From Acidimicrobiia bacterium (GTDB lineage Bacteria > Actinomycetota > Acidimicrobiia > Spongiisociales > Spongiisociaceae): a stretch of 64,000 bases of DNA. A model generated the notes under the pieces. The model made no database searches, was not told the DNA's origin, and saw only the letters and a program-made list of their open reading frames with translations. Positions 12,020-61,849 of the stretch are shown in pieces. How positions within the stretch are numbered: the stretch's first letter is position 1; every line of letters starts with the position of its first letter. The stretch covers positions 2,448,416 to 2,512,415 of the forward strand of contig OZ241390.1 in assembly GCA_965200835.1 (NCBI GenBank), given 5' to 3'. Position numbers and translations under genes: made by a program.

Positions 12020-12306
12020 GGCTCGGTGGGTCGGTGGTCGTCAGGCCGGGCGGATGGTGTTTCGGCATCGAGCTTTCGAGCCTGCTGGTTGTCCCGCCAC
12101 TCCCGGAGGGAACGGTCGGCCAGGACCACCACCACCCCGACACCTGCGGCAGCAACCAGACCGGAAGCCAGCGCGATGACCGGACCCATGATCGGACTAC
12201 ACGAGGTGTCTGCACATCCCACCGCCGTGACCGTCCAGCCGATGAAGCCTCCCACCAGCCCGGCGCCCACCACCGGTAAGAAGAAGCTGTAGCGGAGTCG
12301 GGCCAT
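12016..12306 (-). CDS. small membrane protein (hypothetical)
   Basis: 96-aa ORF with two TM helices, adjacent to and in a different frame from 11771..12019. Confidence 0.25.
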   Translation of the reverse strand: MARLRYSFFLPVVGAGLVGGFIGWTVTAVGCADTSCSPIMGPVIALASGLVAAAGVGVVVVLADRSLREWRDNQQARKLDAETPSARPDDHRPTEP

Positions 12307-12307
12307 C

Positions 12308-13069
12308 TCAACCGTTCCTTTCCAGGGGACGCCCTCGACGATCGTACCCGGCCGCCTCCATCAGGCCCGGAGGGGTCAGTTCAGGAAGGATCGAGACCGA
12401 GCTGACTCGGTGGGGGTCCAGCGGCATGACGGCCAGGCGAGCATCAGCGGTCCAGGCCAGGAACGTCAGCGTGGAGACGGTCACCAGCAGCCCGGCGGCC
12501 GCGACAGGTTGCAGACCCAGGACGGAGACGATACCCAGCGGCAGCAGACCCAGACGCACCAACCACAACGCCCCTGGGAGGGCTCGGGCATATGCCCAAC
12601 CGCCCAACCATCCGAAGGCGACCAGTACCCATCCGGATGGGCTCACCCCCGGATCCCCGAGACCGCCCACGACTGCCGGTAGCCAGATCAGGCCGAGGGC
12701 GAGCATGGTCGCTCGGGTGGGGACCCGATCGGGTTTCACCTGGAGAAACCAACTGTCCAGGGATCGGGTCCAGGCCAGCGTCACGCCGGCTCCATGGGTT
12801 ACCAGCGCCATGATCCACCACATGTCCACCGGAAGGGCGATGGCAACCACCGCCCAGGCCCCGGCTATCACCGCTACGGAGTTCCGCACCCATCTGCCAG
12901 GGGACAGCAGCAGGGCGACCACGTTTACGGCGGTGGCCAGCAGCAGGCCGGCGGCCAGCAAGGTAGCGCTGTGGCTGTCCCACCGCGAAGTCTGGAATGC
13001 CAGGCGCCCGGTCCACAACAGGCTGCCGAGCAGGATGCCGACCGCCGCGGCCGTGACTCTGTAAGGCAC
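12308..13069 (-). CDS. integral membrane protein (hypothetical)
   Basis: ORF 12308..13207 with at least 7 hydrophobic helices. A GTG at 13069 avoids overlap with the divergent NUDIX gene. Confidence 0.4.
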   Translation of the reverse strand: MPYRVTAAAVGILLGSLLWTGRLAFQTSRWDSHSATLLAAGLLLATAVNVVALLLSPGRWVRNSVAVIAGAWAVVAIALPVDMWWIMALVTHGAGVTLAWTRSLDSWFLQVKPDRVPTRATMLALGLIWLPAVVGGLGDPGVSPSGWVLVAFGWLGGWAYARALPGALWLVRLGLLPLGIVSVLGLQPVAAAGLLVTVSTLTFLAWTADARLAVMPLDPHRVSSVSILPELTPPGLMEAAGYDRRGRPLERNG

Positions 13070-13123
13070 GCCTCTATTGTGGCGCGCCGGGACGGGTGAT
13101 GGGAACCTCGGTACGATGGTCGG

Positions 13124-13648
13124 ATGGCAGTGCCGGGCATCGATCAACCGTGGCCGGGCGAGGCCGTGTTCTGTTCCGACTGCGGGACGCGCCTGGAGCG
13201 CCTCCACAGATACGGCCGGGATCGGGGCGTATGTCCCGGTTGCGGCCGGATCGATTTCCGGTCACCCTCCCTGGCGGTGGCAGTCGTCCTGCGCGACTCC
13301 CGGGGTCGGGTCCTGCTGGTCAAGCGTGGTCCGGGATCCTCTCGCCCAGGCTTGTGGTCCATTCCGGCGGGTTACATGGATTACGGGGAGGAAGTACGAG
13401 CGGCTGGTGCCCGTGAGGTGCTCGAGGAGACCGGCCTGGTCGTGGAGCTGGGTGCGCCGGTGTTCGTGGCTACCAACTTCCACGATCCCCTCAAGGTGAG
13501 CGTCTGTATCTGGTTCGACGGGAGGGTGGTGGCCGGTGACCCGGTGGCCGGATCGGACGCGGTGGAGGTGGGTTGGTTCCGCCTCGATGAGCTTCCAGAG
13601 CTTGCCTTCGATACCGATACGGAGCTCTTCTCGAAGATGGAAGGCTGA
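13124..13648 (+). CDS. NUDIX hydrolase with N-terminal zinc ribbon
   Basis: CSDCG...CPGCG zinc ribbon followed by the Nudix box GYMDYGEEVRAAGAREVLEETG. Confidence 0.8.
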   Translation: MAVPGIDQPWPGEAVFCSDCGTRLERLHRYGRDRGVCPGCGRIDFRSPSLAVAVVLRDSRGRVLLVKRGPGSSRPGLWSIPAGYMDYGEEVRAAGAREVLEETGLVVELGAPVFVATNFHDPLKVSVCIWFDGRVVAGDPVAGSDAVEVGWFRLDELPELAFDTDTELFSKMEG

Positions 13649-13714
13649 GCAGGCAATTCCCACCCCGGGCCACCGATCGGCTGGTCCGTTCGCAGGCCAC
13701 CCGCCAGGGTCCGG

Positions 13715-14380
13715 TTAGTGGTCGGCTCCCAGGTCCGGTACCCGCCGGGCCAGCTGGCGCCAGGGCGTTCCGGGCGCAAGGCTGACGATCTCGCAGTGAC
13801 GCGGTTTGGCTTCGTGCAGCAGATCGAGAGGCTGGCCGGTGAGCAGTAGCCGGGCTGCCTGGATCGGATCCTGGTGGGCAACTATCACTACCTCCTCATC
13901 CTGGTGGTTTCTCGCCAGGTCGGAGATGGCGCCGCCCACCCGGGTGGCCAGGTCCTCGACCGATTCGGGTGAGAAGTCCATCTCGAGGGGAGTGGTCAGA
14001 TAGGTGTTGAGCTCGCCGGGCCGGAGGGTGTCGAGCTGCGACCAGGGGAGTCCTCTCCATCGGCTCAGCAGGGCCCACTCGGTCAGCTCCGGTATCGGTT
14101 GGCAGGCCAGCCCATGGGGGGTGGCGATCGTCGTAGCCGTTTCCCTCGCCCGGTCGAGGGGGGAGGTGTACACCGCCCGGATGGGTCGGGATGCCAGGTG
14201 GTCCCGCACCCAGGCCGCCTGCCGGCGGCCTCGCTCGCTCAGGCTGAATCCGGGAAGGTCCGCGTAGACGACCTGGTGGGGGTTCTCCACCTCGCCATGG
14301 CGAACCAGATGCGCTACGGAACCCATCGCGTCCAGGCTAGCTCCGGTAGTGGGAACTCTCACCTCATGAGGACTCACCAT
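13715..14380 (-). CDS. histidine phosphatase family protein (phosphoglycerate-mutase-like)
   Basis: LVRHGE catalytic motif near the N-terminus. An alternative start is M at 14326. Confidence 0.75.
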   Translation of the reverse strand: MVSPHEVRVPTTGASLDAMGSVAHLVRHGEVENPHQVVYADLPGFSLSERGRRQAAWVRDHLASRPIRAVYTSPLDRARETATTIATPHGLACQPIPELTEWALLSRWRGLPWSQLDTLRPGELNTYLTTPLEMDFSPESVEDLATRVGGAISDLARNHQDEEVVIVAHQDPIQAARLLLTGQPLDLLHEAKPRHCEIVSLAPGTPWRQLARRVPDLGADH

Positions 14381-14488
14381 CGAAGTCTGTCATGGCCCGA
14401 GCGGGGATGTCACAGGAGTCCGGTAAGGTACGAACATATGTACGCCCGCTCGCTCTACGATTCCCATCCACGCCGATAGGGCTATCCG

Positions 14489-15730
14489 ATGACCGAGCGC
14501 AGGATTGCGGAACCCATCCTTCATGTCGATATGGATGCCTTCTTCGTGGAGGTGGAACGCCGGGACGGCCTCGCGCCTCGTGGACGCCCGGTGGTAGTGG
14601 GCGCCGATGCCCGGCGGGGGGTGGTGGCATCGGCATCCTACGAGGCGAGGTCCTTCGAAGTCCGCTCGGCCATGCCGATGGTCCGGGCCCGACGCCTCTG
14701 TCCCGGTTTGGTAGTAGTGCCGCCCCGCCACCGGCGGTACGGCGAGGTGTCCGACCAGGTGTTCTCGATTTTCCGGGATTTCACACCGCTGGTGGAAGGG
14801 CTGTCGCTCGATGAGGCGTTCCTGGATGTACGCGGCCGGCGCCGTCACTATGCCGACAGCCGGACGGTGGCGGAGGAGATCAGGGCCCGCATCAGGGACG
14901 AACTGCGGCTCCCGGCTTCGGTAGGTGCCGCCACCTGTCTGTACCTGGCCAAGATGGCTTCGGGGAAGGCCAAGCCCGACGGCGTGTTCATAGTTGTTGA
15001 GAGAACCGAGCGGGCCTTCCTGGATGACCTGGATGTACGGGAGCTGTGGGGGGTCGGAAGGGCTACCAGCACCAGGCTGGGCTCGATGGGGATCACGACT
15101 ATCGGCGACCTGGCCCGAATACCCGCCTCCCTCCTCGAGCGACACCTGGGACCGGGGCTCGGCCAGCACCTGCACCGTCTGGCCAACGGTATCGACGAGC
15201 GGAAAGTGAAGCCCAGCCACGACGCCCGATCGATCTCGGCCGAGCAGACCAACGGCACGGACATTTCGGGTACCGAAGTGTTACAGGCCCGGCTGCTGCA
15301 GCTGGCGGATCGAGTCTCATGGCGGCTCCGCCGGGCGGGCCTCCGTGGGCGAACTGTCTCCCTCAAGCTCCGGTATTCCGACTTCGATACCGTGACCCGC
15401 TCCGAGACCCTGGGCACCGCCACCGATCTGTTGCGCGACGTATACCAGTCCAGTTGCCGGTTGCTCGACCGGGTCGGAGTTGGCGACCGGCCAGTCCGGC
15501 TGCTCGGCATCTCCGTCACCGGTTTGCAGCCGGATAGCGCTCCGCAGCAGCTGCTGGTCGACCGGGACGAGCGTTGGGAGGACCTTGCCGAGGCGGTGGA
15601 CCAGGTGCGGCTGCGTTTCGGCCGCAGGACCGTGGTACCCGCCCGAATCGGGAGTGATGGATCATCCACCGCCTTGGAGGCGCCGGGTCAGCCGACCCGG
15701 GTTAGGGGTCACCGGGGGCGGGTTCCCTAG
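14489..15730 (+). CDS. dinB: DNA polymerase IV (Y-family)
   Basis: ILHVDMDAFFVEVE and SLDEAFLDV motifs. 413 aa. Confidence 0.9.
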   Translation: MTERRIAEPILHVDMDAFFVEVERRDGLAPRGRPVVVGADARRGVVASASYEARSFEVRSAMPMVRARRLCPGLVVVPPRHRRYGEVSDQVFSIFRDFTPLVEGLSLDEAFLDVRGRRRHYADSRTVAEEIRARIRDELRLPASVGAATCLYLAKMASGKAKPDGVFIVVERTERAFLDDLDVRELWGVGRATSTRLGSMGITTIGDLARIPASLLERHLGPGLGQHLHRLANGIDERKVKPSHDARSISAEQTNGTDISGTEVLQARLLQLADRVSWRLRRAGLRGRTVSLKLRYSDFDTVTRSETLGTATDLLRDVYQSSCRLLDRVGVGDRPVRLLGISVTGLQPDSAPQQLLVDRDERWEDLAEAVDQVRLRFGRRTVVPARIGSDGSSTALEAPGQPTRVRGHRGRVP

Positions 15731-15834
15731 CGCCGCCGTGCCCGGCGCGGCCAGGACGATGGGAGTCCATCCACTTTCTTGCCTGCGGTGGCGCGTATAC
15801 TGGTGGGGCACTGCGGACTACGGGAGCGGCTTCT

Positions 15835-16170
15835 ATGCCACTGGATGAGCGGGAGCAACAGATACTCGAGGAGATCGAGCGACAGTTCCGAGTCGAAGAC
15901 CCCGAGTTCGATCGTCGCGCCTCCTCCATTGCTCGACAACACCACCGGAAACTCCGATTACCCATCTCGGGCGCGGCTGCCGGTCTCGTGCTGCTCAGTA
16001 CCTTCTGGCTCGACGGGATAGGCACGTGGCTAGCCCTTGCGGGATTCGGCCTGATGGTCCTGTCCATCAGCGCACTGGTTCAGATCCGGAATGGCTTCAC
16101 CAAGCACGGCGGCCAGCCGCGCGATTTCCTCTCGAGCGCGAGAAACGCCCGCTGGCCGTTCCGTAGCTGA
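15835..16170 (+). CDS. DUF3040-family membrane protein
   Basis: MPLDEREQQILEEIERQF N-terminus followed by two TM helices. Confidence 0.65.
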   Translation: MPLDEREQQILEEIERQFRVEDPEFDRRASSIARQHHRKLRLPISGAAAGLVLLSTFWLDGIGTWLALAGFGLMVLSISALVQIRNGFTKHGGQPRDFLSSARNARWPFRS

Positions 16171-16820: not shown

Positions 16821-16850
16821 CGCTCCTCCGCCAACCTACAGCTCCCTCCG

Positions 16851-18187
16851 ATGCTCGAACGCGTCTACATCGAGAACTACAAGTGCCTGGCCGACTTCGA
16901 GCTGACGTTCGAAGACAGCGCAACGCTACTCCTAGGTCCGGACGGGGCTGGCAAGACGGCAGTGCTCGATGCGGTCTATGGGCTTTGCAAGTTGCTCGCC
17001 GCAGAAGTCAAGATCAGCGACCCGATAGCATTTCCGGCGTCAACTCTCACTCGTTGGCAAACCTGCCGCCATCAGGAGTTCGGGCTTCAGGTACGGGTGG
17101 GTGTCGACAGGTTCGTCTATGTGCTCCGGATCGAGCACGATGCTGGTACCGCGACTTCCTACGTCGCACGGGAGGAGCTGGTCGGTGGGGACACGGTGTT
17201 GTTCCGGTGCGCGAAGGGACAGGTGCAGCTCTTCGGTGATGACGGCTCGGAGGGACCAACCTATAGGACAGACGGGAGCGACTCTGCTCTGGCAAGGGTC
17301 GTGCCACACCCGTCCAACACGCGGATTACGTCCTTCCTCGATGTAGTTCGTAACACGGTGGTCTGTACCATCAATCCGTACGGTCTCCGCTCCGAGTCGA
17401 GTCGGGAGGACCGGCTTCTGGACCGCTACGCTTCGAACTTCGTCGATTGGTATCGCAATGCTGTCCAGGAGACCCCGGCACTGGCCCGCGATCATCTAGA
17501 AGCTTTGCGGTCGGCGATCGAGGGTTTCGACGACCTCCACCTCATGCAGTCCGGCCTTGTCACCCGGACGATGGTGCTCAGATTCACCGGCGGGCAGGAC
17601 GTCGAGTCATACAGACTCAGCTTCGGTGAGCTCTCTGAAGGGCAGCGGACACTGATTGTGCTCTACGGGTTGTTGCAGCTCGGTATCGCGCGAGGGATGT
17701 CTGTTTGATGTTGGACGAGCCGGACAACTATGTGCCGCTTCGCGAGATACAGCCGTGGTTGATGACCTTGGTAGACGTATGCGAGGAGACATCCTCCAAA
17801 GCCATCATCTGCTCGCATCACCCGGAGGTGATCGACTACCTAGGACCGACGCAGGGGAGGATCCTCCAACGCAACGCAGCTGGCGCAATGACCGCTCTAA
17901 AGGTCAACCTCCCTTCGGTGGGCCCGGCGCTCAAACTATCCGAACTCCTGGCCCGCGGATGGGTTGTTGAAGTAGGGTGTCCCCGGTTGTCCTGCTTCGT
18001 GAGCACAAGATTGTCAGGTGTGCGTCTACGGCCATTTCCCGCCCGGCTTCAGCATCGGGACGGCTGCGTCAAATGTCACCGATGCGACTTCTCAGGCCAG
18101 CTTCCCATCGTTTTCAAGCCCATCTGTCCGGAAGGTACGTGTGAGGTGCTGGCTACTAGGTACGCCGGAGGGCTCGGCGCCACCTGA
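16851..18187 (+). pseudogene. AAA_15/AAA_21-type ABC-like ATPase, disrupted by a -1 frameshift near 17700
   Basis: ORF 16851..17708 carries Walker A (LLGPDGAGKTAVL) and an ABC-signature-like LSEGQRTL. ORF 17705..18187 continues in the -1 frame with Walker B/D-loop (LMLDEPDNY) and H-loop (ICSHHPE). Confidence 0.6.
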
Positions 18188-47198: not shown

Positions 47199-47433
47199 GG
47201 TCGGTGCCTTCGGTTCGGCAGGTCGGCACGTTCGGCCGCTCCGGCATTATGCCCCATGACGGGACACCGGCACGCCTAGCCCCCATTCCAATAGTTCGAG
47301 GCGGAAATACAATAGGTGCGGTCGGCGATCGGAGGGTTCCATCTATCACGGTGGAGGGGGTGGCTGGTGGTCCTACCTCCGGTACGACAGGACCCAGCCT
47401 GGCCCAGAGCTGGATCGGGCGCTGCTCCGCAGG

Positions 47434-49235
47434 GTGTTCGCCTACGGGCGCCCCTACCGGTGGCTCCTGGTGGGGGTGCTGATCACCATCCTGATCATCT
47501 CGGTCCTGTCGGTGATCCCGCCCATCCTGATCAGGGACCTGGTGGATCGGGCCATGCCGGACGCCGACCTGGGCCGCCTGACCCTGCTCGGGGTCGGGAT
47601 GGTGGCGGTGCCGCTGGTGAACGTCTGTGTGGGCGCCCTACAACGCTGGATGTCTGCCAAGGCGGGCGAGGGCATCATCTACGACCTCCGCCGCAGTCTC
47701 TACATCCATCTCCAAGCCATGTCGCTGCGGTTCTTCACCGCCACCAAGACCGGCGAGCTGGTGTCACGCCTCGACAATGACGTGGTGGGCGCTCAGACGG
47801 CCATCACCGGCACCTTCGTGACCATCCTGTCCAATCTGGTCTCGATAGTGGCCATCCTGTTCGTGATGCTCCAGGCCGAGTGGCGGCTGACGCTGCTGGC
47901 GGTGGCCGCCTTCCCGCTGTTCGTTTACCCGGCTCGACGGGTGGCCCAGATCCTGCGCCGGATCACCCGCCGCCAGATGCAGCACAACGCCGCCATGGCC
48001 GCCATCCTCAACGAGACTTTCAACGTCAGCGGAGCCCTGCTGGTCAAGCTGTTCGGCCGCCGGCGCCAGGAGACGGAGCGGTTCTCCGAGGAGGCCCGGG
48101 CGGTGCGGGATCTGGGGGTTCGCCAAGCGGTCATCGGGCGGTGGTTCTTTGCCGCGCTCGGGGCGGTCAGCGCCATCGGGACCGCCACGGTGTTCTGGGT
48201 GGGTGGCTATCTGGTGATCCAGGGTTCCCTGAGCCTGGGCACGGTGGTCATGTTCTCCTCCCTGCTGTTCCAGCTGTATGGGCCCCTGGCCGCCATGTCG
48301 AACGCCCGGGTGGAGTTCGCTACTTCCCTGGTCTCCTTCGAGCGGGTGTTCGAGGTACTGGACCTACCCCACGACATCACGGAGGAGCCCGATCCGCTCG
48401 ACCTGCGGCCGGTCCGGGGCCGGGTCCACTTCGATAGGGTCTCCTTCCGCTACCAGGGGGATGAGCTGTCGGGCCTGGCCCCGCCCAGCGTTCCTGGGGG
48501 ATCGAGGACAGTGATGCTCCGGCGATGCAAGCCACCCGCACCTGGGCGATCGACGACCTGTCCTTCCGGATCGAACCGGGAGAGCTGGTAGCGCTGGTCG
48601 GACCATCGGGGGCCGGAAAGACCACCGTCTCCTACCTGGTTCCCCGGCTGTACGACACCGAACGGGGGCGGGTGATGATTGACGGCACCGATGTACGGCG
48701 GGCGACCCTCGCCTCGCTGGAGGAGGTGGTGGGGGTGGTGACCCAGGAGACCTTCCTGTTCCACGACACCATTGCGGCCAACCTCCGGTATGCCAAGCCC
48801 GATGCCTCCCAGGAAGAGCTCGAGGAGGCGGCTCGAGCAGCCAACATTCACGACTTCATAATGACCCTGGCCACCGGTTATGACACGGTGGTGGGGGAGC
48901 GGGGCTACCGGCTGTCGGGGGGCGAGAAGCAGCGCATCGCCCTGGCCAGGGTGATCCTCAAGGATCCGCAGATCCTGATCCTCGATGAGGCCACCGCCCA
49001 TCTCGACTCCGAGTCGGAGGCGCTCATCCACGAAGCGCTGCAGCGGGTGATGGCAGGTAGAACCTCGCTGGTGATCGCCCACCGCCTGTCCACCATCGAG
49101 TCCGCCGACCGGATCCTGGTGCTGGACGAGGGCCGGCTGGTGGAGGAGGGAACCCACACCGAGCTGCTCGAGGCCGATGGTCTATATGCCCGGTTGCGCC
49201 GGATCCGGCTCAGGCGGCGGAAAGTTCCCGCCTGA
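47434..49235 (+). pseudogene. MsbA-like ABC exporter (fused TMD-NBD) disrupted by a frameshift near 48470-48540
   Basis: ORF 47434..48591 holds a 6-TM domain up to VSFRYQGDE and then runs out of frame. ORF 48525..49235 holds the NBD ([34 protein letters not shown]). In the NBD frame the upstream sequence already reads ...[14 protein letters not shown]. Confidence 0.7.
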
Positions 49236-49248
49236 CCCGAGGGCAGGC

Positions 49249-49605
49249 TCAGGCGCCTATCAGCCGGGACACCGATGGCCATTGGTGGGCGAGCAACAGG
49301 AGCTGCCCGTCGTGGCACATCCACAGATGTTCGTTGGCCTTGAACCACTGGTGGGGTGGGGTGACCTTCAGAGCCGCCTGATCGGCCGGCTGGCTGGGTC
49401 GGTAAGCCAGCACCTCGCTGGCCGGGGCCCGGATGGTATCGACCGGGCCGACCAGCTGGTAGTCACCGAACAGGGCGCCGATGGCGTTCCATGGATCCGA
49501 TCCCCCGGTCACATCACGAAACCGGACCTCACCACAAGCCGAGCAGCCCCCCACCCTCAGGTCACCGTGGGCTCTGATCTCCGTGATGTGGTCGCCGCAC
49601 CGCAT
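49249..49605 (-). CDS. hypothetical protein
   Basis: 118-aa ORF with no recognisable domain. Weak call. Confidence 0.25.
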   Translation of the reverse strand: MRCGDHITEIRAHGDLRVGGCSACGEVRFRDVTGGSDPWNAIGALFGDYQLVGPVDTIRAPASEVLAYRPSQPADQAALKVTPPHQWFKANEHLWMCHDGQLLLLAHQWPSVSRLIGA

Positions 49606-49768
49606 GACAACATGGTGCCACGGGCCTGTGACATTTCGCGGTAATGCGCCGATCAGTGGCAGGCCCCACTCATCTGTCGTGAGTGGAGTGAGCTACTCAC
49701 CGAGTCAGGGATCTGTCACCGCCTGACGGTAGGATGAGGGTGGACTACGGATCGACGATGGGCGGAGC

Positions 49769-52700
49769 TTGACCGAAAACACGCTTCCCACACGAGCGCC
49801 CTCGGTGGGCGAGCTGGTAAAGGTCAGGTCACGCCAGTGGCTCGTGGAGGAAGTGGGCCAGTCCGACAACCCTGATCACTCTCCCCGCGTGCCGCTCGCC
49901 TGCGTCGACGATGACAATCAGGGCCAGCGCCTCTCTGTGTTCTGGAAATACGAACCGGATCGGCTGATCCTCGAGGACGCCGGTTGGAACCACCTGGCGA
50001 CCAAGGGCTTCGACCCACCCCGGCGCTTCGCGGCCTTCCTCAACACCCTGCGGTGGAACTGCACCACGGCCACCGACCCCACCCTGCTCCAGGCGCCCTT
50101 CCGAGCGGGCATCACCATCGATGCCTACCAGATGGAACCCCTCCGCAAGGCCTTGCGCCTCCCGCGGGTGAACCTGCTGATCGCTGACGACACCGGCCTG
50201 GGCAAGACCATCGAGGCGGGCTTGATCACCCACGAGCTGCTCCTCCGCCGCAAGGTCAAGGTCATCGTGGTGGCCGCGCCCCCGTCGATGCTGGAGCAGT
50301 GGAAGGGAGAGATGGAGGATCGCTTCGGGCTGGTGTTCGAGGTGCTCGACCGGAGCTACGTCTCGAGGATGCGGCGTGAGCGAGGTTTCGGGGTCAACCC
50401 GTGGCGGACCCACAGCCGGTTCCTGGTGTCGCACCGCCTGCTGATCGACCCCTCCTACACCGACCCGATGCGGGAGTGGTTGGGTGACCTCCGCACCGGC
50501 AGCCTGCTGATCCTCGACGAGGCGCACCATGCCGCCCCCACTTCGGGCGGGCGCTACGGCATCGAGACCAAGTTCACCCGGGCAGTTCGCGATCTCGCCC
50601 ACCGCTTCGAGCATCGCCTGTTCCTGTCGGCCACGCCCCACAACGGGCACTCCAACAGCTTCTCCACCCTGCTGGAGATCCTCGACCCGTACCGGTTCAC
50701 CAGGGGAGTCAAGGTGACCGCACCCAAACAGGACCTCGCTCCGGTGATGGTGCGCCGGCTGAAGGAGGACATCCGGGCGCTGCAAGGTGGGTTCCCCAAG
50801 CGCAACGTCCAGCGGATCGAGATCGACGGCTTGCCCCACGACGCTCCGGAGTTGGCCCTGTCCCGGTTGCTGGATGAGTACGGCCGGGTACGCGATGAGC
50901 GCTACTCGCTGGAGTCGAAACGAGTCCGTTATGCGGCGAGGCTGATGGTGGTCGGCCTGCAGCAGCGCCTGCTGTCATCGATAGAGGCCTTCCATCGCAG
51001 CCTCCTGGTCCATCGCCGGACCGTGTTACGCCACTGGACCAAGGCCCACGAAGAGGTGTCTGAAGACACTCCACAAGGGCGCGGGATCACGACGAGTGAG
51101 CGCCATGACTTCGTGGCAGCTGCCGATGCGGACGATGACCGAGCCGAGTTGACTCCGGAGGAGGCGGGAGCGGACGAGCAGGCCCAGATCGAGGAGATCA
51201 ACGCGGCCTCCCTTCCCTCGCGGGACCCGGCGAGGGCAGCTTGGGAACGGGAACAGCGCCTCCTCGACCGGATGCAAGCGATAGCGAAGAAGGCCAGGCA
51301 TCATCCCGATGCCAAGACCCGCTGGCTGATCGACTGGATCCGCCGCCACCAGTGCCCGGATCTGCCCGAGCTCGGCCGACCCATCATCGGCCCTCCGCCG
51401 ACCTGGACCGACCGCCGGGTGCTGATATTCACCGAGAACCGGGAAGGCACGAAGAAGTACCTGAAGTCGATCCTCGAGCAGGCCATCTTCGGTTCCGACC
51501 GGGCGGACGACCGGATAGCGATCATCGACGGGCTGACCAGCCCGGCCCGCCGCCGGGATGTCCGGCGCCGCTTCAACGCCGATCCCGCCCGCGAGCCCCT
51601 GCGGATCCTGATCGCCACCGACGCCGCCCGGGAAGGCCTCAACCTGCAAGCCCAATGCTCGGACATGTTCCACTTCGACCTGCCCTGGAACCCCGGCCGC
51701 ATCGAGTAACGCAACGGTCGGATCGACCGAAAGCTCCAACCCGCCGATCAGGTGAACTGCCACTATTTCGTGCTGCCCCAGCGGGTTGAGGACCGGGTGC
51801 TCGATGTCCTGGTCCGCAAGACTGAAACCATCAAGCAGGAGCTTGGTAGTTTGCCGAAGGCCATCGAGGACACAGTGGAGCAGCGCCTCACGCGGTACGG
51901 GATCCGTCACCACGATGCGGAGAACCTGCGGCGCAAGGTAGAGGCCGAGTCGGTGGACCAAGCTCACGCAAGCGTGTCCGACGAGGAACTCGAAGCCGCC
52001 CGGGACCGCCGCCATGACCTCCAGGATCAGATAGAACGCTGCCGCCGGCTCCTCCAGAAGTCCCGGAGCTGGGTGAGATTTTCCCCCGAGCCCTTCCACC
52101 AGGCCATCGACTGCTCCCTGGAGCTGCTGGGTGCCCCACCCCTGGTGGAGAGCACCCAGGTCCAGGGGGGGGGGGCGTCGTCGAGTTTGGAAGTTCCCTG
52201 AGCTAGATCAGAGGGCAACCACCGATCCGAGCTGGGTTTCCACGCTCGACTCCCTGCGGGTTCCCCGCAAGATCGACCAGAAGATACCCGACTGGCGGCG
52301 CGACGCGCCCATCCGACCCCTGGTGTTCGAGGACACCGGACTGCTCGATGACCAGACCGTCCACTTCCACCTAGAGCAGCGAGTCGCTCAGAGGCTGCTG
52401 GCCCGCTTCCGATCCCAGGGCTTCATCCATCATGACCTTTCGAGGGCCTGCCTCCTGCAGTCGCGGGACGCAATATGCAGGGTGGTGCTCCTGGGACGGC
52501 TGTCGCTATACGGCCGGGGTGCTGAGCGCGTCCACGAGGAGCTCGTTCCGGTAACCGCCCGCTGGACCGATCCCGACCGGCGCTCTGGCCCCTTACGTGC
52601 CTACGCGACGGACACTGAGCGGTTCACTATGCGGCTGCTCGACGAGTCGTTGAGCTCCCAGGCTCGCTCGCCCAATCCGCAGGTCAAGCGGCGGCTGCTG

Positions 52701-53081
52701 GGCAGTGTCGCCCAGGACATCGAGGAACTACGTCCACATCTAGAGCCCCGCGCCGCCACGTTTGAGGAGCGCGCCAGAGAGCAACTGGCAGAACGCGGTA
52801 AGCGAGAGGAGCGGATGCTGCATGACACGCTCGAGCGGCACCGCACCCAGGTGGTTGCCCAACTCTCCCGTTATAAGCGCGACCTCAAGCAGCTGTCCCT
52901 GGGGTTCAACGTTGCGGAGAGGGGGCAGCTCAAAGCCGACATCCGCCACTGGGGCCGGCGCCTGGAGAAGTTCGATCAGGACTTGATGGACGAGCCCGCC
53001 CGGGTTCGCGAGCTCTACCGAGTGCGGGTCACCCGGGTGGAGCCGGTGGGCCTCGTCTACCTATGGCCGGAGGGAAACTGA
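49769..53081 (+). pseudogene. SNF2-family helicase (DISARM DrmD-like) with an in-frame TAA at 51707 and a G11-tract frameshift at 52165
   Basis: Walker A LIADDTGLGKT, DEAHH box, LSATPHNG and motif VI DLPWNPGRIE-*-RNGRIDR, with the stop in place of the conserved Gln. ORF 51752..52201 continues in the same frame. After the G11 run, the frame of ORF 52131..53081 continues for a further 300 aa. Confidence 0.7.
52165..52175 (+). repeat. G11 homopolymer tract inside the SNF2 helicase gene
   Basis: Eleven consecutive G residues read directly. Reading frames switch across it. Confidence 0.9.
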
Positions 53082-56000
53082 TGCCCAAGCCCAACCGCTA
53101 CATCACCGACCATCTCGAATGGATCGGCTTCGTTCGGCCCACCGGTCTGGTGGTGTCAGCTCCCGCCTTGGTAAAGGCGGGCGTCATCCTCAACCGTCGG
53201 GATCGGGCCGGCCAGCAACTACTCAAGGAGTGCCTACCGAACGGCTCGGGTACGACGGGATCACAACCCGACCCGGCCCCCGTACTTCCGGACTTCCCGG
53301 CCTTCGCCCGTACGGTGCTCGGCTGGAGTTTCTCTCCCAAGGGCTATGCCGGTACGGAGGAATCACCGATTCCCTCCGAGCTCGAGCTCTCCCTACCCGA
53401 TTCCGGAGGCGGGTTCCGGCCTGACTTCGCAGTTCTAGCCGACCCTGCCCGGTCCCGGCCGCCCGCCACCAACGGAAACAAGCGTGAAGGGACCGACCGG
53501 GCATCGCCCTGGCAGCTGCTGGTCAGCACCTACGAGCCCTGCGAAGACTTCGACAAGACAGCCTCGAACGGCTCGGGAGTGGAGATGTCGCCCCACAGCC
53601 GGATGGAGCGCCTGCTACGTGACACCCGGGTGCCCGCCGGGCTCCTTTTCGACGGAACGACCATTCGCCTGGTGTCCGCTCCCAAGGGCGAGAGCTCGGG
53701 ATGGATGGACTTCCAGGTGGGCGACATGATCCAGACCGCTGGGCGCCCGATCTGCACTGCGATGCGCGAGCTGCTCAGCCAGACCCGGCTCCTAGTCGTA
53801 GGGCGCGACCAGCGCCTGGCCGCGCTGCTGGAGGACAGCCGGAAGTTCCAGAACGAGGTGAGCGAGCGCCTGGCCGAGCAGGTACTGCACGCTCTGTACG
53901 AGCTACTGCGAGGTTTCCAAGCCGCCGATGACACCGCAAAAGGCCAGCTACTTGGACGCTGGCTGGCTGACCAACCCGATGAGATCTACAGGGGGTTGCT
54001 CACCGTGGTGCTGCGCCTGGTCTATCTGCTGTACGCCGAGGAACGCGACCTGCTGCCCCAGGACGAGACCTTCCTAGGGCCTACTCGGTGTCAGGCCTAT
54101 ATGAGCGTCTGCGGGCTGACGCCTCCCTCCATCCCGACACTATGGACCAGCGCTACGGAGCCTATGCCCAGCTCCTAGCCCTATGGCGCATGGTTCATGA
54201 CGGGGCCAAAGCGACCGACATGGTGATGTCGCCCAAGTATGGCGACCTCTTTTGCCCGACCGCTACCCCTTCCTCGAAGGCAGTCTGGGGGCCAGGCAGA
54301 CGACTGACCGCATCGAGGCACCGCTGGTACCCGACGGCACTATCCATCGGGTGCTGGAGAAGCTGATCGTGCTGGACTCCGAGCGCATCTCCTACCGAGC
54401 TCTCGATGTGGAGCATATCGGTTCGGTGTACGAGACCATGATGGGTTTCCGCCTCGAGAGGGCCACCGGTCGCAGCATCGCCATCAAGGCTGCCAAGAAA
54501 CACGGCGCTCCGGCCACCATCAACCTCGATGAACTGCTCTGTCAGGCTTCCAGTAGCCGGACCAAGTGGGTCAAGGATCGGACCGATCGACAACTAAGCG
54601 CAAAGGTGGGCCGGGCGGTCCGGGAAGCCACCACGCTGGAGGAGCTCCATGCCGCCCTCGATCGGGTGATCGACCGCCAGGCCACACCTGATCTCGTCCC
54701 GCCCGGCGCCATGGTGCTGCAACCCAGCCAGGAGCGCCGCCGCTCGGGTTCCCACTACACGCCCCGCAGCCTGACGGAGCCGATCGTCCGCAAGGCGCTG
54801 GACCCAATCCTGGACCGCCTCGCTGAAGAACAAGAGGGCCCACTTCGACCGGAACAAATCCTCGACCTGAAGGTGTGCGACCCGGCCATGGGCTCGGCGG
54901 CGTTCCTGGTAGAAGCGTGCCGCCAGCTGGCCGACGCCCTGATCGAAGCTTGGCGGGCCCACGAAGAAGCACCCGACCTCCCCCCGGGCGAGGACCAGCA
55001 GATCTTCGCTCGCCGACTGGTGGCTCAACGCTGCCTCTACGGAGTCGACCGCAACCCCAAGGCAGTGGACCTAGCCAAGCTGTCGTTGTGGCTCATCACC
55101 CTGTCCAAGGACCATCCGCTCACTTTCCTCGACCACGCCCTCCGCCATGGCGACTCGCTAGTGGGTCTGTCGATCCCTCAGATAAGGGCTTTCCATTGGA
55201 AAGGCAACGCTCCCGCCTTTCAGGAGGGTTTTGAGGCCCTCCGAGGACAGCAGCTACTCGCCGATGCAGCCGAGCTACGCAGGTGGATTCGCGAGGAAGG
55301 CGACACCATATCCGAGCGGGAGATGCGCGAAGCGTGGATGGAGTCGCGTGAAGTGACCGACGACCTCCGCTTGTTGGGGGACCTGGTGCTGGCGGCGTTC
55401 TTCGATGAGTCCACGCCAACGGCGCGGGAGGCACGTCGTAAAAGGTTCGCGAATGGCGTTCAGAACGGTATCGAGGGACAGTATCGCGCCTGGATGGAGG
55501 AACTTCGCAACCAGGACCGACCCCTCGCGCCACTCCACTGGCAGATCGAGTTTCCCGAGGTCTTCGACCGTCCCAATCCCGGCTTCGATGTCATAGTCGG
55601 TAATCCACCATTCGCTGGTAACAACACTATTACCGCTTCGAACATCAACCGCTATTCCCACTGGCTCAAGGAGATGCATGTTGAGAGCCACGGCAATTCG
55701 GACTTGGTAGCTCACTTCTTTCGGCGAGCCTTCAATCTGGTCCGTATGGGTGGAACCTTTGGTCTTATCGCTACCAATAGCATCTCCCAAGGTGACACAC
55801 GCTCGACGGGACTACGATGGATATGCAAGAACGGCGGAGAAATATTTTGTGTTCGCAAGCGTGTGAAGTGGCCTGGACAAGCTGCGGTAGTAGTGAGTGT
55901 ACTCCACATCAGCAGAGGTGGATTTCACGGCTACAGGCTCCTTGACGGTCACTCCGTATCAAAGATCACAGCCTTCTTATACTATCGAGGCAAGAACGAT

Positions 56001-57107
56001 GATCCGAGGTCGTTGAAAGCTAACATAGCCAAGAGTTTCTTGGGTAGTATAATACTGGGGATGGGGTTTACTTTTAACGATAACGATAAGGAGCGTGTGG
56101 CTACACCAATTAGAGAGATGGAAAGACTCCTAAGGTCTAATCCTTCGAATCAAGTGGTTATTTGTCCATATATAGGAGGGAGGGAGCTAAATAACAACCC
56201 GACCCAAAAAAACCATCGTTCCGTAATTGACTTCGGGGAGAGAAGTTTGTCAAAGTGCAGATTCCATTGGCCCGACTTACTAGAGATAGTAACCAATAAG
56301 GTTAGACCAATACGAATCAAGAAGCGTTATCCTCGTATGGCGAATGAGTGGCGGAAACATTATGCACCCCAATTAAAACTATACGATTCTATTAGGGGTT
56401 TAAAACGGGTTATGGCAACTTGTAGGGTTAGCCAACACATGTCTTTTGCCTTTCTGTCTAACGGAATGGTCTATGCAGACTCATTAGTTATATTCTCCTA
56501 TGAGAGATTCGCCGCATTCTGCGCGCTCCAAGCAAGACCTCACGAGATCTGGTCTCGATTCTTCGGATCCTCGATGAAGGACGACTTACGCTATACAGTC
56601 ACAGACTGTTTCGAGACATTTCCACTTCCGAATAGCTGGGAGAGCCGCTCCGACTTCGAATCAGCAGGTGAGGAATACTACGAGTTCCGGGCAGACCTGA
56701 TGAAATTCAACGATGAAGGCTTGACCAAGACATACAACCGATTCCATGATCCCAGCGAGAACGATGCCCGGATTATCGAACTCCGTAGACTGCATGCCGC
56801 CATGGATCGGGTTGTACTGGACGCATACGGGTGGAGTGACATCCCGACGGACTGTGAGTTCCTGCTCGACTACCCGATCGATGAGGACAACTGGGGCAGG
56901 AAGAAGAAGCCTTACCGCTACCGCTGGCCTGACGAGGTTCGTGATGAGGTGCTGGCTCGGTTGCTGGAGCTCAATGCCGAGCGGGCTGCTGAAGAAGCAC
57001 GGTCCGGTCAAGCCAACCCACCGCGTGGCCGGGGACGGCTCCAAAAGTCGCCACCCACGACTTCTCCATCCAACCAACTCACCTTGAGCCCTTCCAATGG
57101 CACCTGA
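53081..57107 (+). pseudogene. Eco57I/type IIG-like N6-adenine DNA methyltransferase (DISARM DrmMI-like / PglX-like), two frameshifts
   Basis: ORF 53063..54178 in frame A, ORF 54088..54366 in frame B (SGLYERLRADASLHPD...) and ORF 54252..57107 in frame C. Frame C carries motif I (DPAMGSAAFLVEA) and motif IV (VIVGNPPF). An ATG at 53081 overlaps the upstream TGA (TGATG). Confidence 0.75.
55740..56800 (+). other. low-GC (about 45-50%) segment inside the methyltransferase ORF
   Basis: Base composition falls sharply against about 68% flanks while the reading frame stays open (ICKNGGEIFCVRKRVKW ... NRFHDPSEND). It lies downstream of the NPPF catalytic motif, where target-recognition domains sit. Confidence 0.7.
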
Positions 57108-57120
57108 ATGGAGGTGACCC

Positions 57121-60100
57121 ATGCCTGAGCCGGACCCATCTCCCGGATGGAACGAGGCCCCCTCACCGGAGGTGCGCGACTACCTGGTCGAAGCGTTGCG
57201 GCTCGATCTGGTCGGTCCGGGGGCTGGCCATCACCTGGCCGATGAGCAGCTGCCGGGATGGGTTAGACCGTCCAGCTGGTACCTCACCGGGTTTCTGATC
57301 CCCTCGGGCACGCCACTCGAGTTGCGCTCCGACAACGACGAGGACGACCCGCTGGACGAGACTCCGGCCACCGCCGGTCTGGCTGAGGAGTCGTCGGAGG
57401 AGCGGAGGGCAGCCCGCAAGAGCTTCTTCCCGTCGTCGATCGGGCTGAGCTTCCTCGTCCCACACAAGACGGAGGTGCTGGACATAACCGTTCGCTGGGG
57501 CGACTACCAGCGGTCGACCACCGAGGGCACCGACGGCAAGCCGCTGAAGGTGTGGCAGAGGCACCCGCAGGAGCACACCGTGGCGGTCACTCTCCCGGAC
57601 CGATCCTCCGATCATGAGGTTCCGGAGTCCGGTGGGCTGGGGCTGCACATGGTCACGAGGCCAGTGGAGGTCGAGGGTCCCGACGGCCTCACCCAGCAGG
57701 TCAATTCGGTGTCGATATTCCTGGTCAACCATCGGCCCTCGCTCGGGGGCCAGCCCGGCGACGTTACGAGCCTCGGCGACGCCGATCTCGGCTACGCCTT
57801 CCAGGCCGAGCTCGAGATCACCAGTGAGGTGCCATTCGTGCCCCGTCCTGACCCCCGTGGGGCGCATGGTCGGGAGTGGGACGACCAGGTAGCCGACCTC
57901 CACTATGCGGACACACCTGAGTACGCGGTCGGCCACGGGGTATCAGCCGAGTGGGAGGTGGTGGGCGGCAAGTGCCATGTCCTGCGCACTACCTGGATCC
58001 CGGACGCCGCAGTGGCGAAGACCGAGGCCACCTCGAAGCCGGAGGCGGAGCTGTCGATGGAGGTGCTCGGAAGTCTTCCGGATGGCGACGCGGTATCGGC
58101 GGCCTTGCGGCCGCTGGTAGAGCACTACCGAGCCTGGATCGACAGCCAGTACCGGACTCTCACCGCACACACGGGTGACCGCCGGAAGACCGCGGGGGAG
58201 CTATTGAGTCACGCCCGCGGGGCCGCCGACCGTATCGAGCGGGGGATCGACCTGCTGGTTACCGACCCGGACGCCCTCGACGCCTTTCGGGTGGCCAACC
58301 GGGCCGTGGCCACTGCCTTGCAGAGGAGGATCGGCTCCCCACCTGAGGAGTCGGGATGGCGCTGGTATCCATTCCAGCTGGCGTTCATCCTGCTCAACCT
58401 CCCCGGTCTGGGCGATCCGCAACATCCCGAGCGCCCAGTGGTCGACCTCCTCTTTTTCCCGACCGGCGGCGGCAAGACCGAGGCCTATCTGGGTCTGGCG
58501 GCCTTCACCATGGTGCTGAGACGCTTGCGGGAACCCGGCCATGAGGGCCGGCAAGGGGCAGGCGTCACCGTGATCATGCGTTACACGCTCTGGCTCTTGA
58601 CCCTGGATCAGCTGGCCCGGGCCTCCGGCCTGGTGTGCGCGCTGGAACTGGAGCGCCAGCTCGATCCCGACCGCTATGGAACCTGGCCGTTCGAGATCGG
58701 CCTGTGGGTGGGCAAGGCGGCCACCCCCAACGCGATGGGTCGGGTGCGTGACGGACGGCAGGACACGGCCCGGGCCAAGACCCGCCGATACAAGGCCAAT
58801 CCGGGATACCACCCCCTGCCCATTCCCCTCGAGACCTGCCCGTGGTGCGGTCAGCAGTTCGAGCCGGCGAGCTTCACGCTGCTGCCCGACGACGAGCTGC
58901 GCATCGTGTGCCTCAACTTCGAGTGTGACTTCCAAGGGGACAACCCGCTGCCGATCGTGGCGGTGGACGATCCCATCTACCGGCGTCTGCCTGCCTTCCT
59001 GATCGCCACGGTCGACAAGTTCGCCTCCCTGCCCTGGACGGCCCGCACCGGCCTGTTGCTCGGCGGCGCCGACCGCATCGACGCCAAGGGCTACTACGGA
59101 GCGGCCGATCCCGGAATCGGTCGCCCGCTCGACCACCCGCTACTGGCCCCTGACCTGATCATCCAGGACGAGCTGCACCTGATATCAGGGCCCTTGGGCA
59201 CCATGGCCGGCCTGTACGAGACGATCATCGAAGCCTTATCTGTCCAGGCCAGCGAGCGGGCCGGTCATCGTCCAGAGGGCCGCCGGTCGCCGCAGGTACG
59301 GCCCAAGATCGTGGCCTCCACTGCAACAGTCCGCCAGGCGCAGAGTCAGGTCCAGGCCCTGTTCGCCCGGTCGGCCACCCGGGTGTTCCCACCCCCAGGG
59401 CCGGACCGGAAGGATTCGTTCTTCGCCGAGACTGTCCCCACCACCCAGGTACCCGGCCGCTTGTATCTCGGTATCGCGGCGCCGGGACGGAGTCCCAAAG
59501 TCCTGATGCGCCGGGTCTGGCTGGCCCTGATGGGATCCGCCGAGCGGGCCTACCGAGACGCCGGCGGGCGCAAGAACCGGGACAACCCGGCCGATCCCTA
59601 CATGACCGTGCTGGGTTACTTCAACAGCCTGCGGGAGCTGGGTGGGGCGCGCCGCATCCTCGAGGAGGAGGTCCGCAACACCGTCAAGACCTACGGGCGT
59701 CGCCGCCGGATCGGCCAGTCCTTCCAGGAAGCACCGTTCCGGGATCGGACCAGCTTCGCGGAGGTGGTGGAGCTCACCTCCCGGGTTCCGACCGGCAAGG
59801 TGGCCGAGGCGAGACGGCGGCTGGGATGCGCCAAGCACGAGCAGGACAGCGTGGACAGCGCTATCGCCACCAACATGATCTCGGTGGGTCTCGACATCCC
59901 CCGGCTCGGGCTGATGGTGGTAGTCGGCCAGCCCAAGACCCACTCCGAATACATCCAGGCCACCAGCCGGGTGGGGCGGGACGATCAGCGGCCGGGACTG
60001 GTGGTGACCTTGCTCAACATGCACAAACCCCGCGACCGATCCCACTACGAGCGCTTCCGTCACTACCACGAGACCTTCTACCGCTCCGTGGAGGTGTCCA

Positions 60101-61799
60101 GCGTCACGCCCTTCTCGGCCAGGGCCCTCGACCGCGGGCTGGCCGGCGCACTGGTGGGCTACGCCCGCCATGCGGAAGGAGTGCTCACGCCGGCCGAGGG
60201 AGTCGAGGAACTCGAAGCGGTCAGGGTTACGGTCGAACGACAACTCCGGCAGGTACTGCTGCAGCGAGTGGACCGCCAGCCCTTCCAATACGAGACCGAG
60301 CACACCGAAAGGCGCCGGAGCGTGACCGCCCGGGTGGTGGAACTACTCGACTCGTGGTTGAAAGTGGTGGAGGGCTACCACCAGGTAAACAGCCCGGTGA
60401 GGTATCAGAAGTACGAGGGGAAAGCGGCCGCCAAACCACTGTTGCGGGAGATGCTCGACCAGGACTTCGAGACCGCCCACCATCGCAAGTTCCGAGCCAA
60501 CCGCTCCCTACGTGATGTCGAGCCGGAGGTGAACCTGTATATCAGGCCGCTCACCGCCTCTCTCGGCGACTCTACGAGGCCACCGAGCTCAGCGACTGGC
60601 CGCTCGGTCTGTGCCTGGGCAGGCGGCCGTGGCTGGGTCGCGGCACCGACGAGGATTGCACGCTACCGAGCCGGTTGCTCATCCGCACCGCCTCCAACGC
60701 CTACTTTCCCCAGGTGGTCAGCGTCCTGTCGCTGCCTGATCGGGGCACCGATCTGGACCGGGTGGTGGGGGAGCTCTGGGAGGACCTTCAGCTGGTGGAC
60801 CGCTTGAGCCATCTCCGCTTCCTCAAGAAGAAGGCGAAGGTAAGCGGGGGACTGGCTGGCTTTGCCGACGCTGAGGTGCTGAAGGCGATCCAACGCCGCA
60901 AGGGCGGGTCCGCGGGCGACCGCTCCGTCAAGGAGGCCGAGCTCGAGGAACTGCTGGCCGCGCCGGAAGGATTCGGCGACCGGGGACAGGTCGATCCGAA
61001 CTTCCACGCCCGGCGCCTGCCACAGAGTGCCTGGAGATCCCCGCGGTCGAAGCTGAGCGGTGGAGTAGAGGGAGTGATCCACCTCCACCGGTTGCGCGAG
61101 GTGCTGGCCCTGATCGGATTCACCCGCTTCGAGGCCGTTATCCGTGACATCCACGGCGAGTACGACACCGATGTCGAGCGGGCCGGCATCGCCCTCGATC
61201 CCAGCTGGTTTCCGGCGATCGAGAACCGTGACGAAGGCCTGTTCGCCTACCTGAGACCGGAGGAGGTCGACAGGTGGTTACGGAGACGACCCGCGCAAAC
61301 CCGGATAGACGACCTTCGCAACCGGCACGAGACCGGCCAGCAAGGCCGTAAGCATCCCTGGCCCTTCCCCGGAGGCCCCTACATCCTGTTGCACACGCTC
61401 GCACACCTGCTCATCCAGTGGCTGGCCATGCGTTGCGGCTACCCGGCCAGCTCCATCCGCGAGCGGATCTATGTGGAAGGTCAGCGCTATGGCCTGCTCC
61501 TCTACACCGGATCTCCCGACGCCGAAGGGACCCTGGGCGGCCTCGTCCAGCAAGCCCGCCACTTCGAGGACCATCTGGCCTATGCGCTTCGGGTGGGCGA
61601 GCTTTGCTCCAACGACCCGATCTGTGCCCAGCACGGAGCTGGCACCGCCCTCGAGGAGGGTCACCTGCACGGTGCCGCCTGCCATGCTTGCACGCTGATA
61701 GCCGAGACCACCTGCGAGATGCGCAACGACTACCTCGACCGGGCGCTGGTAGTCCCGACCCTCGGCTCGGACGGTGCCGCCTTCTTTCCGTCCCCCTGA
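57121..61799 (+). pseudogene. large DEAH-box helicase with C-terminal DUF1998/MZB zinc-binding domain (DISARM DrmA+DrmB-like in one frame), one frameshift near 60540-60575
   Basis: ORF 57121..60807 has a 440-aa N-terminal domain, Walker A FFPTGGGKTEAYL, IIQDELHLISG, an inserted CPWCG...CLNFEC zinc ribbon and motif VI QATSRVGRD. ORF 60675..61799 has the DUF1998 Cys cluster CSNDPICAQH...GAACHACT. GC3 tracks frame 0 until about 60575 and frame +2 from about 60543. An SD GGAGGTGA lies 6 nt upstream. Confidence 0.7.
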
Positions 61800-61849
61800 T
61801 CACGGTCAGCCAACCACCTACCGACTGTCCGGAGCCCCATTTCCTCTCT

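Follow-up and report, generated by a model that had tools for sequence, protein, structure and literature searches.

Does a defence locus whose helicase gene reads on into a DUF1998 domain represent a new architecture, or is it the remains of a known one? This question is raised by nucleotides 49769–61799 of a 64,000-nt stretch of DNA from an Acidimicrobiia bacterium (assembly GCA_965200835.1, contig OZ241390.1, positions 2,448,416 to 2,512,415 of the forward strand; hereafter the window, to which coordinates refer unless another locus is named). An initial annotation, made from the sequence alone, had described this region as a class 1-like DISARM defence island of non-canonical layout, in which three tightly spaced genes were all disrupted, and had proposed that a helicase-DUF1998 fusion, a 440-aa N-terminal helicase domain and the lack of drmC made it an undescribed variant. 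Our analysis indicates that the region holds a class 1 DISARM operon that was inactivated recently and whose design is fully canonical (drmD-drmMI-drmA-drmB, at first probably with drmC after it), a reading to which we assign a probability of about 0.88. The locus is a member of a known system, and the claimed architectural novelties do not hold.

The + strand of the region carries a chain of open reading frame (ORF) fragments that correspond to four co-oriented genes, drmD, drmMI, drmA and drmB, so that the co-orientation described initially stands and the number of genes does not. All four products matched their PADLOC profiles very strongly (best E-values of 1.6e-217 for DrmD, 1.9e-284 for DrmMI, 1.3e-270 for DrmA and 5e-52 for DrmB), and none of them failed to find its DISARM family. 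Consistent with these assignments, Pfam identified SNF2-rel_dom and Helicase_C in the first gene, Eco57I, MmeI_Mtase, MmeI_TRD and N6_Mtase in the second, Helicase_C in the third and MZB, which is DUF1998, in the fourth. Homology thus bears out the proposed class 1 domain set, and DrmA and DrmB also match the solved structure of Serratia DrmAB. The co-directional order D-MI-A-B is that of class 1 DISARM, in which drmD and drmMI stand before the core triplet drmA-drmB-drmC (10.1101/2021.12.28.474362); the same order, the commonest among the relatives, occurs in 26 of them, and one of these (L012) has equally tight spacing. The layout is therefore not unusual. The details of the spacing were as first described: the drmD TGA (53079–53081) overlaps the drmMI ATG (53081–53083; cTGATGc), with GGAGG 8 nt upstream, and a 13-nt gap containing the Shine-Dalgarno sequence GGAGGT separates the drmMI stop (57105–57107) from the drmA ATG at 57121 (TGA-atGGAGGTgaccc-ATG, 57105–57123). 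That the locus might not be DISARM at all, and might be a Type IIG or Type ISP restriction-modification system or a BREX-like system with helper helicases, has next to no probability left, for although the methyltransferase matches Pfam Eco57I, MmeI_Mtase and MmeI_TRD (the last two above cutoff), MmeI_N below it (25.4 bits; cutoff 27) and the PADLOC REase_MTase_IIG profiles (419 bits), it scores 945 bits with the DrmMI profile and 35 with PglX, its neighbours are DrmD, DrmA and DrmB by profile (DrmA and DrmB also by solved structure), the PADLOC lists contain from BREX only a weak PglX (~35 bits) and a BrxHI/HII helicase (150–153 bits, compared with 723 for DrmD), and the profile ranking together with synteny with complete DISARM loci already rules it out.

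The relatives referred to here are 80 loci from a scan of one genome per species, with identities of up to 74%, onto which all window fragments were mapped; the retrieved flanks were limited and some loci are incomplete. The best of them come from Acidimicrobiia and other metagenome-assembled genomes (MAGs), several of which are named for sponge symbionts. The arrangement D-MI-A-B-C was the commonest, with 26 loci containing all five genes and 28 more ending at the limit of the flank. In particular, the intact loci L012 (OZ241331.1), L005 (OZ220727.1), L001 (Ca. Spongiisocius, OZ241858.1) and L002 (APA_bin_98) encode all four proteins at 60–74% amino acid identity, in the same order and with tight coupling, and in L012 drmB is followed by a 297-codon ORF encoding DrmC, a phospholipase D (PLD) family protein (PADLOC 1.1e-72; Pfam PLDc_2 and PLDc). 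Intact relatives have a full-length DrmB (589–608 aa) and usually DrmC, and many have cargo between drmMI and drmA, whereas the window has none of these. The search for intact orthologous loci and for drmC that the initial annotation had called for was successful in part: complete D-MI-A-B-C loci were found, the closest at no more than 75% identity, and no intact sister copy above 75% identity was found by protein searches or the genome scan. In Serratia sp. SCBI, the DISARM system of class 1 (drmD-drmMI-drmA-drmB-drmC plus drmMII; structures 7S9V and 7S9W) consists of the same families in the same order, and its DrmMI is of the same type, an MmeI/Eco57I-like adenine methyltransferase with a target recognition domain (TRD). 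Unlike the Serratia locus, the window has neither drmC nor drmMII, its drmB is without a start and the N-terminal ~210 residues, its drmD and drmMI are interrupted, and the system is presumably non-functional.

The cargo found in many relatives amounts to 3–5 kb between drmMI and drmA (L006:7125–9056, L005:8055–9968, L004:6096–7406 and L011:6174–7802) and includes AAA_15/AAA_21 ATPases (with DUF4276 or DUF3696), an AAA_16/BrxC-BrxD-like ATPase and an M78 peptidase-domain protein, which look like nested defence modules. In the closest relative, drmA is interrupted by a ~1.4-kb insertion with its first ~95 codons duplicated (L001:10001–11695), and a stray DrmMI C-terminal fragment is present at 8545–8793 of the same locus.

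What looks like a helicase-DUF1998 fusion was left behind by a ~0.6-kb deletion and is not a new architecture. The product of drmA matches DrmA of the Serratia class 1 system (PDB 7s9v_A; E 9.1e-160, query residues 81–1037 to chain residues 210–1212), contains Pfam Helicase_C (E 2.5e-6) and has intact Walker A (GGGKTEAY) and DELH motifs, and the 80 relatives align with it over residues ~13–1142 in a single high-scoring segment pair. What had been taken for a novel 440-aa N-terminal domain is the normal "chassis" of DrmA, which the alignments include from residue ~13 in the relatives and from residue 81 with Serratia DrmA. The drmB remnant matches Pfam MZB (E 5.2e-9) and chain B of the same structure (7s9v_B; E 1.2e-60), with residues 15–410 of the piece corresponding to residues 223–617 of the 619 in the chain. 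Contrary to the initial description, helicase and DUF1998 parts do not lie in one reading frame: drmA is read in the frame with position mod 3 = 1 and drmB in that with position mod 3 = 0, and the break between them is a deletion rather than a frameshift inside a fused gene. In the relatives, DrmA ends in '…RDVEPEVNL.I.PLTASLSDS*', drmB starts at or near that stop ('MSPKAHGQIRQSQVITTYGPGA…'), and 573–674 nt lie between the drmA stop and the drmB codons for SRRLYE ('…RCEC.KSRRLYEAT'). The DrmA tail of the window, 'RPLTASLGDS', corresponds to 'RPLTASLSDS*' of the relatives and ends at 60573, and the 13 nt at 60561–60573 can be read both as the tail of drmA (…SLGDS) and as drmB (SRRLYEATE…). The deletion took the last 0–3 codons and the stop of drmA, the drmB start and ~190–210 N-terminal DrmB codons; as a result, the drmA ORF runs on for 78 codons out of frame, and the first possible start of the drmB remnant is the TTG at 60675. 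It possibly occurred between short direct repeats, which the 13-nt overlap would fit.

Independent copies of the junction come from Logan assemblies of other sequencing runs, retrieved via exact-product look-ups and 99.9–100% identical to the window. Three of these, each from a different run (L081, L089 and L090), cover 59004/60057–64000 with no gap at the deletion junction, and because the junction is the same in all three, no hidden indel lies behind the difference in frame. We also considered whether a short DrmB starting at the TTG (60675) or at a GTG (60765) is native, as hinted by a 445-aa PADLOC profile, and rejected this, since full-length homologues and 7s9v_B show that ~200 residues are missing. 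The part of DrmB that was lost is the part wrapped by the C-terminus of DrmA (PMC9142583).

An undescribed class 1 variant with a native helicase-DUF1998 fusion, an extra N-terminal domain, no drmC and later point lesions would account for a DrmA ORF that enters drmB sequence without a prior stop and for the absence of drmC from the window, and most other systems of the YprA family do have a helicase with DUF1998 fused to it (PMC9142583; 10.1101/2025.09.15.676423). However, the two frames differ in three independent assemblies, the ~190–210 N-terminal codons missing from drmB are present in all relatives, and the N-terminal region of DrmA is common to all relatives and to Serratia DrmA. Moreover, no fused homologue occurs among the best 120 of 7162 DrmB matches, which are stand-alone proteins of 344–608 aa, nearly all of 589–608 aa and none of helicase size, and each close relative has a drmB of its own, with its own start, the finding that the initial annotation had itself named as refuting its reading. 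This agrees with the description of DISARM as that YprA branch whose members consistently have one gene for the helicase and another for OB-CON-DUF1998 (10.1101/2025.09.15.676423). Helicases of the YprA/MrfA/DruE type with a C-terminal OB-CON-DUF1998 region share a superfamily with the DrmA core and DUF1998/MZB; they are true in-frame fusions that include the OB fold, whereas the window has an out-of-frame junction and has lost the N-terminal part with the OB fold. A native fusion is already ruled out by the frame analysis and the orthologue alignments, and we regard it as hardly credible.

Table 1. Features of the disrupted DISARM locus, its flanks and a complete related locus (window coordinates, except for L012).
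Feature	Coordinates	Strand	Basis
drmD pseudogene, SNF2-type ATPase, ~1103 codons frame-corrected, TTG start	49769..53081	+	PADLOC, Pfam, orthologue colinearity
drmD ORF fragments	49769-51709, 51752-52201, 52131-53081	+	ORF calls
Lesion 1: in-frame TAA in superfamily 2 (SF2) motif VI of drmD	51707..51709	+	Alignment with 7 orthologues; this assembly alone
Lesion 2: G11 homopolymer, +1 frameshift in variable Gly-rich linker of drmD	52165..52175	+	blastp and MAFFT against orthologues; this assembly alone
drmMI pseudogene, MmeI/Eco57I-like N6-adenine methyltransferase, ~1343 codons frame-corrected	53081..57107	+	PADLOC, Pfam
drmMI ORF fragments	53063/53081-54178, 54088-54366, 54252-57107	+	ORF calls
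Lesion 3: -1 frameshift in drmMI, GGG where orthologues imply GGGG	54077..54079	+	Orthologue alignment; this assembly alone
Lesion 4: -1 frameshift in drmMI at TTTT-TG	54250..54254	+	Orthologue alignment; this assembly alone
TRD segment of drmMI, foreign composition	55600..56800	+	GC profile; Pfam MmeI_TRD = fragment residues 610-794
drmA, YprA-family DExH helicase, complete to 0-3 codons before original stop	57121..60573	+	PADLOC, PDB, relatives
Extended drmA ORF	57121-60807	+	ORF call
Lesion 5: ~0.6-kb deletion junction	60561..60573	+	Orthologue alignment; identical in L081, L089, L090
Out-of-frame run-on of drmA ORF through drmB, 78 junk codons to TGA	60574..60807	+	ORF/frame analysis
drmB remnant, CON-DUF1998/MZB part, 412 codons	60561..61799	+	PDB, Pfam, PADLOC
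drmB ORF (frame open from 60516)	60675-61799	+	ORF call
Spacer at the place of drmC (PLD) in most relatives; without drmC remnant	61800..61849 (50 nt)		tblastn
ABC exporter (transmembrane and nucleotide-binding domains, TMD-NBD), flank, not DISARM	47260..49235	+	Pfam ABC_membrane and ABC_tran in different frames
L012 (OZ241331.1) locus	D 2432-5791, MI 5752-9945, A 9863-13510, B 13447-15345, C 15245-16138		Fragment mapping

The other lesions lie in drmD and drmMI. The three drmD fragments fall at positions 9–614, 631–757 and 760–1036 of the DrmD profile (PDLC02621, 1040 positions; E-values 1.6e-217, 1.8e-15 and 6.7e-46), with Pfam SNF2-rel_dom (E 6.7e-10) and Helicase_C (E 1.5e-10), and the gene is colinear with residues 14–1119 of L012 DrmD; its Walker A (DDTGLGKT) and DEAH motifs are intact. 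The first lesion replaces the invariant Gln of 'LPWNPGRIEQRNGRIDR', a Gln in all seven aligned orthologues, with TAA. Recoding of this stop codon was considered and rejected, because the other genes of the window show no departure from normal reading and one C to T change in CAA is enough to explain it. The second is a run of 11 G residues, potentially a hypermutable site, at which the drmD frame moves from mod 3 = 2 to mod 3 = 0; G10 or G13 would restore it, and no other homopolymer of the 64-kb window exceeds 7 nt. In Streptomyces, the related Pgl/BREX methyltransferase gene is known to undergo phase variation through G tracts, and the G11 tract lies in a variable Gly-rich linker tolerant of length change, in which relatives have 'GGNGGGQG', so the tract might be thought a contingency switch by which a system that is not dead is reversibly OFF. 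We consider this very improbable: with the frame restored at G11, the upstream TAA, the two drmMI frameshifts and the irreversible drmB deletion would still remain, and at the protein level a comparable run of Gly codons is missing here from all seven aligned relatives.

In drmMI, the fragments match the DrmMI profile (PDLC02643, 1347 positions) at 7–303, 313–370 and 369–1328 (E-values 7.4e-64, 3.8e-12 and 1.9e-284), with Pfam Eco57I (E 6.8e-22) and N6_Mtase (E 1.5e-9) and an intact NPPF motif; homologues are 1340–1420 aa long. The third lesion reads 'GGG CC TAC' in place of the expected 'GGG GCC TAC' ('DETFLG|AYSVSGLYERL'), a change of the homopolymer undercall type, and the fourth reads 'TTT TG CCC', one base short ('KYGDLF-x-PDRYPFLEG'). 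In a window of ~65% GC, the segment encoding the TRD is a sharp trough, with a GC content of 0.42–0.50 and a third-position GC content (GC3) of 0.36–0.5, compared with ~0.8 elsewhere in drmMI, and its median identity to the relatives is 55%, compared with 68.5% for the methyltransferase core. TRDs of lower GC3 also occur in the relatives L001, L011, L044, L052 and L053. These observations suggest that TRD cassettes are exchanged between hosts of differing GC content. Type IIG restriction-modification enzymes of the MmeI/Eco57I family have homologous methyltransferase and TRD domains, the latter apparently exchangeable; unlike those enzymes, the window gene finds its best profile in DrmMI and is surrounded by a DISARM operon.

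The absence of drmC, also noted initially, was confirmed: tblastn with DrmC of L012 and L005 found no PLD gene in the whole window, and the convergent transglutaminase operon that had been described (transglutaminase/Alpha-E/ATP-grasp) begins only 50 nt past the drmB stop. The same two queries match directly after drmB in 60 of the 80 relatives, including all of the closest ones. About 15 of the 80, otherwise complete and with sequence available for more than 7 kb past drmB, are likewise without drmC and have there unrelated housekeeping genes such as those for LysR, superoxide dismutase (SOD), an ABC ATPase, NADH dehydrogenase and ferrochelatase. Because drmC is missing from these relatives, and because DrmC is dispensable for defence in both DISARM classes (10.1101/2021.12.28.474362), its absence is a recurrent state and does not define a new variant.

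How many of these lesions are real? The initial annotation had counted at least five inactivating lesions, and alignment to intact orthologues does place breaks in drmD, drmMI and drmA/drmB, five in all and each within 10 nt of the position first given; the fifth, though, is the deletion, and the first four are seen in this assembly alone. The deletion and the absence of drmC are certainly real and widespread across samples, because independent Logan assemblies reproduce both junctions, eight runs in the case of that between the drmB end and the transglutaminase operon. One further assembly (L096) matches 48906–50527 exactly, so that the 5' end of drmD is present in those populations too. For 50528–59003, no independent sequence was found among the Logan assemblies, by exact-product look-ups or by protein search. 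Exact-product look-ups returned nothing for the DrmD fragment (with an L or M start), the 316-aa DrmD C-fragment, the extended DrmA ORF, the 951-aa DrmMI fragment (P0121) or the 365-aa DrmMI N-fragment. When the N-terminal part of frame-corrected DrmMI served as a protein query, it recovered the fragment of the source genome itself, and the match after that was 75% identical. In several runs, the Logan contigs are interrupted within the DISARM locus or at its edges (ending on the left at 49541, 49800 and 50527 and beginning on the right at 59004 and 60057), and near-identical DrmMI was not found in those assemblies.

We regard the TAA as probably real and the three single-base frameshifts (lesions 2–4) as provisional, because a homopolymer frameshift of the same assembly, in the adjacent ABC exporter gene, is missing from three others. 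In particular, the exporter is split in the window at a C4 run (~48478–48481), where the Logan assemblies L082, L084 and L085 have C5 and an intact 600-aa ORF; the break reflects an error of assembly or else a pseudogene private to the strain. We judge improbable an alternative under which the locus is partly an artefact: the drmA/drmB deletion and the loss of drmC would be its sole real lesions, the frameshifts of drmD and drmMI, perhaps together with the stop codon, would be errors of the consensus or changes private to this one genome, and the population would still express a DrmD-DrmMI module or at least an orphan DrmMI methyltransferase. In its favour, each of lesions 2–4 is a change of ±1 in a run of G or T, in the stretch that has no independent coverage, the coding sequence shows no excess drift, and Serratia drmD, drmMI and drmMII retained protection against some phages without drmABC (10.1101/2021.12.28.474362). 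Against this, the TAA is a substitution and not a homopolymer indel, and other parts of the window do not point to a generally error-prone assembly: the window is indel-free against ten assemblies over 4962–11166 (6.2 kb, 100% identity), and in the 21.5 kb that could be cross-checked there is a single indel with the window as the outlier, the one in the ABC exporter. Three frameshifts within 2.1 kb of drmD and drmMI would be unusual as errors; at that rate, three in the uncheckable 8.5 kb have a Poisson P of ~0.008, which is only suggestive, the rate resting on a single event. A further drmA frameshift in an independent assembly also fits relaxed selection on the locus. This frameshift, in the Logan assembly of SRR33960552, is an additional 1-nt deletion outside any homopolymer (L081:852, window 59855) that splits DrmA into two called genes.

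Upstream, the locus is flanked by dnaE, a DHQase-hydrolase gene, the ABC exporter gene and a 118-codon ORF without a Pfam match (49249–49605, - strand). Scans for signs of mobility found no tRNA and no Rfam family, no convincing flanking direct or inverted repeats (only short matches at chance level) and no integrase or transposase domains among the flanking ORFs scanned, and a promoter and terminator scan at the ends of the operon gave nothing above shuffle expectation. Elsewhere in the window, a 295-codon ORF encodes the N-terminal P-loop part of an AAA_15/AAA_23/SMC_N ATPase and nothing more of it; an ORF of 182 codons in a different frame follows and overlaps it (16821–18187), and the pair may be the remains of a further ATPase or defence gene. 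The region 10000–12000 has a lower GC content (0.58) and a UPF0150 (HicB-like) ORF at 10051–10578, and Logan contigs consistently end at ~10400–11170.

If the ancestral system worked in the manner of the Serratia class 1 system, on which the following outline is based, DrmMI would have marked host DNA by methylating adenine at N6 within a non-palindromic motif that its TRD determines, and the DrmA helicase and DrmB (OB-CON-DUF1998) would have formed a 1:1 complex, autoinhibited by the trigger loop of DrmA and activated by DNA with a 5' overhang, with DrmD (SNF2) and DrmC (PLD) as accessory proteins. In the present sequence, the drmA stop has been removed along with the drmB start and one third of DrmB at its N-terminus, so that DrmA ends in 78 junk residues and no normal DrmB can be made; drmC is absent, drmD carries the motif VI nonsense codon and the +1 shift at G11, and drmMI the two -1 shifts. 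Given that there is no intact DrmB, that DrmA has a junk tail and that DrmD and DrmMI would be truncated if their lesions are real, the locus is very likely to give no DISARM defence. In columns that are invariant elsewhere, the window has 2–3 private changes per protein, within the range of intact relatives. We infer recent decay from the conservation of the remaining codons, which equals that in intact relatives, and ongoing decay from the additional drmA frameshift of one sample (L081) at 59855.

Three considerations weigh against a recently inactivated operon of canonical design. The predicted loss of function is drawn from the DNA sequence only, and the Serratia class 1 system tolerated the loss of single genes, even of drmABC, against some phages (10.1101/2021.12.28.474362). 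The first four lesions are known from one assembly, and three of them are single-base homopolymer changes like the ABC exporter discrepancy, so that some could be consensus errors or strain-private. Finally, this lineage may or may not once have had drmC, given the relatives in which housekeeping genes stand directly after drmB. A more elaborate version of recent inactivation, which we think doubtful, would make the locus a population snapshot of the stepwise erosion of defence in a small-genome bacterium (the contig is 2.8 Mb) whose nearest DISARM relatives are sponge-symbiont MAGs; the drmA/drmB deletion and drmC loss would be fixed across many samples, further frameshifts would be segregating (59855 and possibly the drmD and drmMI indels), and DrmMI, with a compositionally foreign, recently swapped TRD, would survive as an orphan methyltransferase in one part of the population.

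For the biology of DISARM itself these findings have little import, the architecture being canonical and the system very probably dead. They do advise caution on two counts: a deletion that removes a stop codon and the 5' end of the next gene can mimic a domain fusion, and single-base homopolymer frameshifts in one assembly (here probably a long-read metagenome) need read-level support before they are counted as pseudogenising. The locus adds a documented case of defence-system decay whose key deletion is supported by multiple samples, and the comparison adds evidence that class 1 loci without drmC, and TRD cassettes of low GC content, recur among these relatives.

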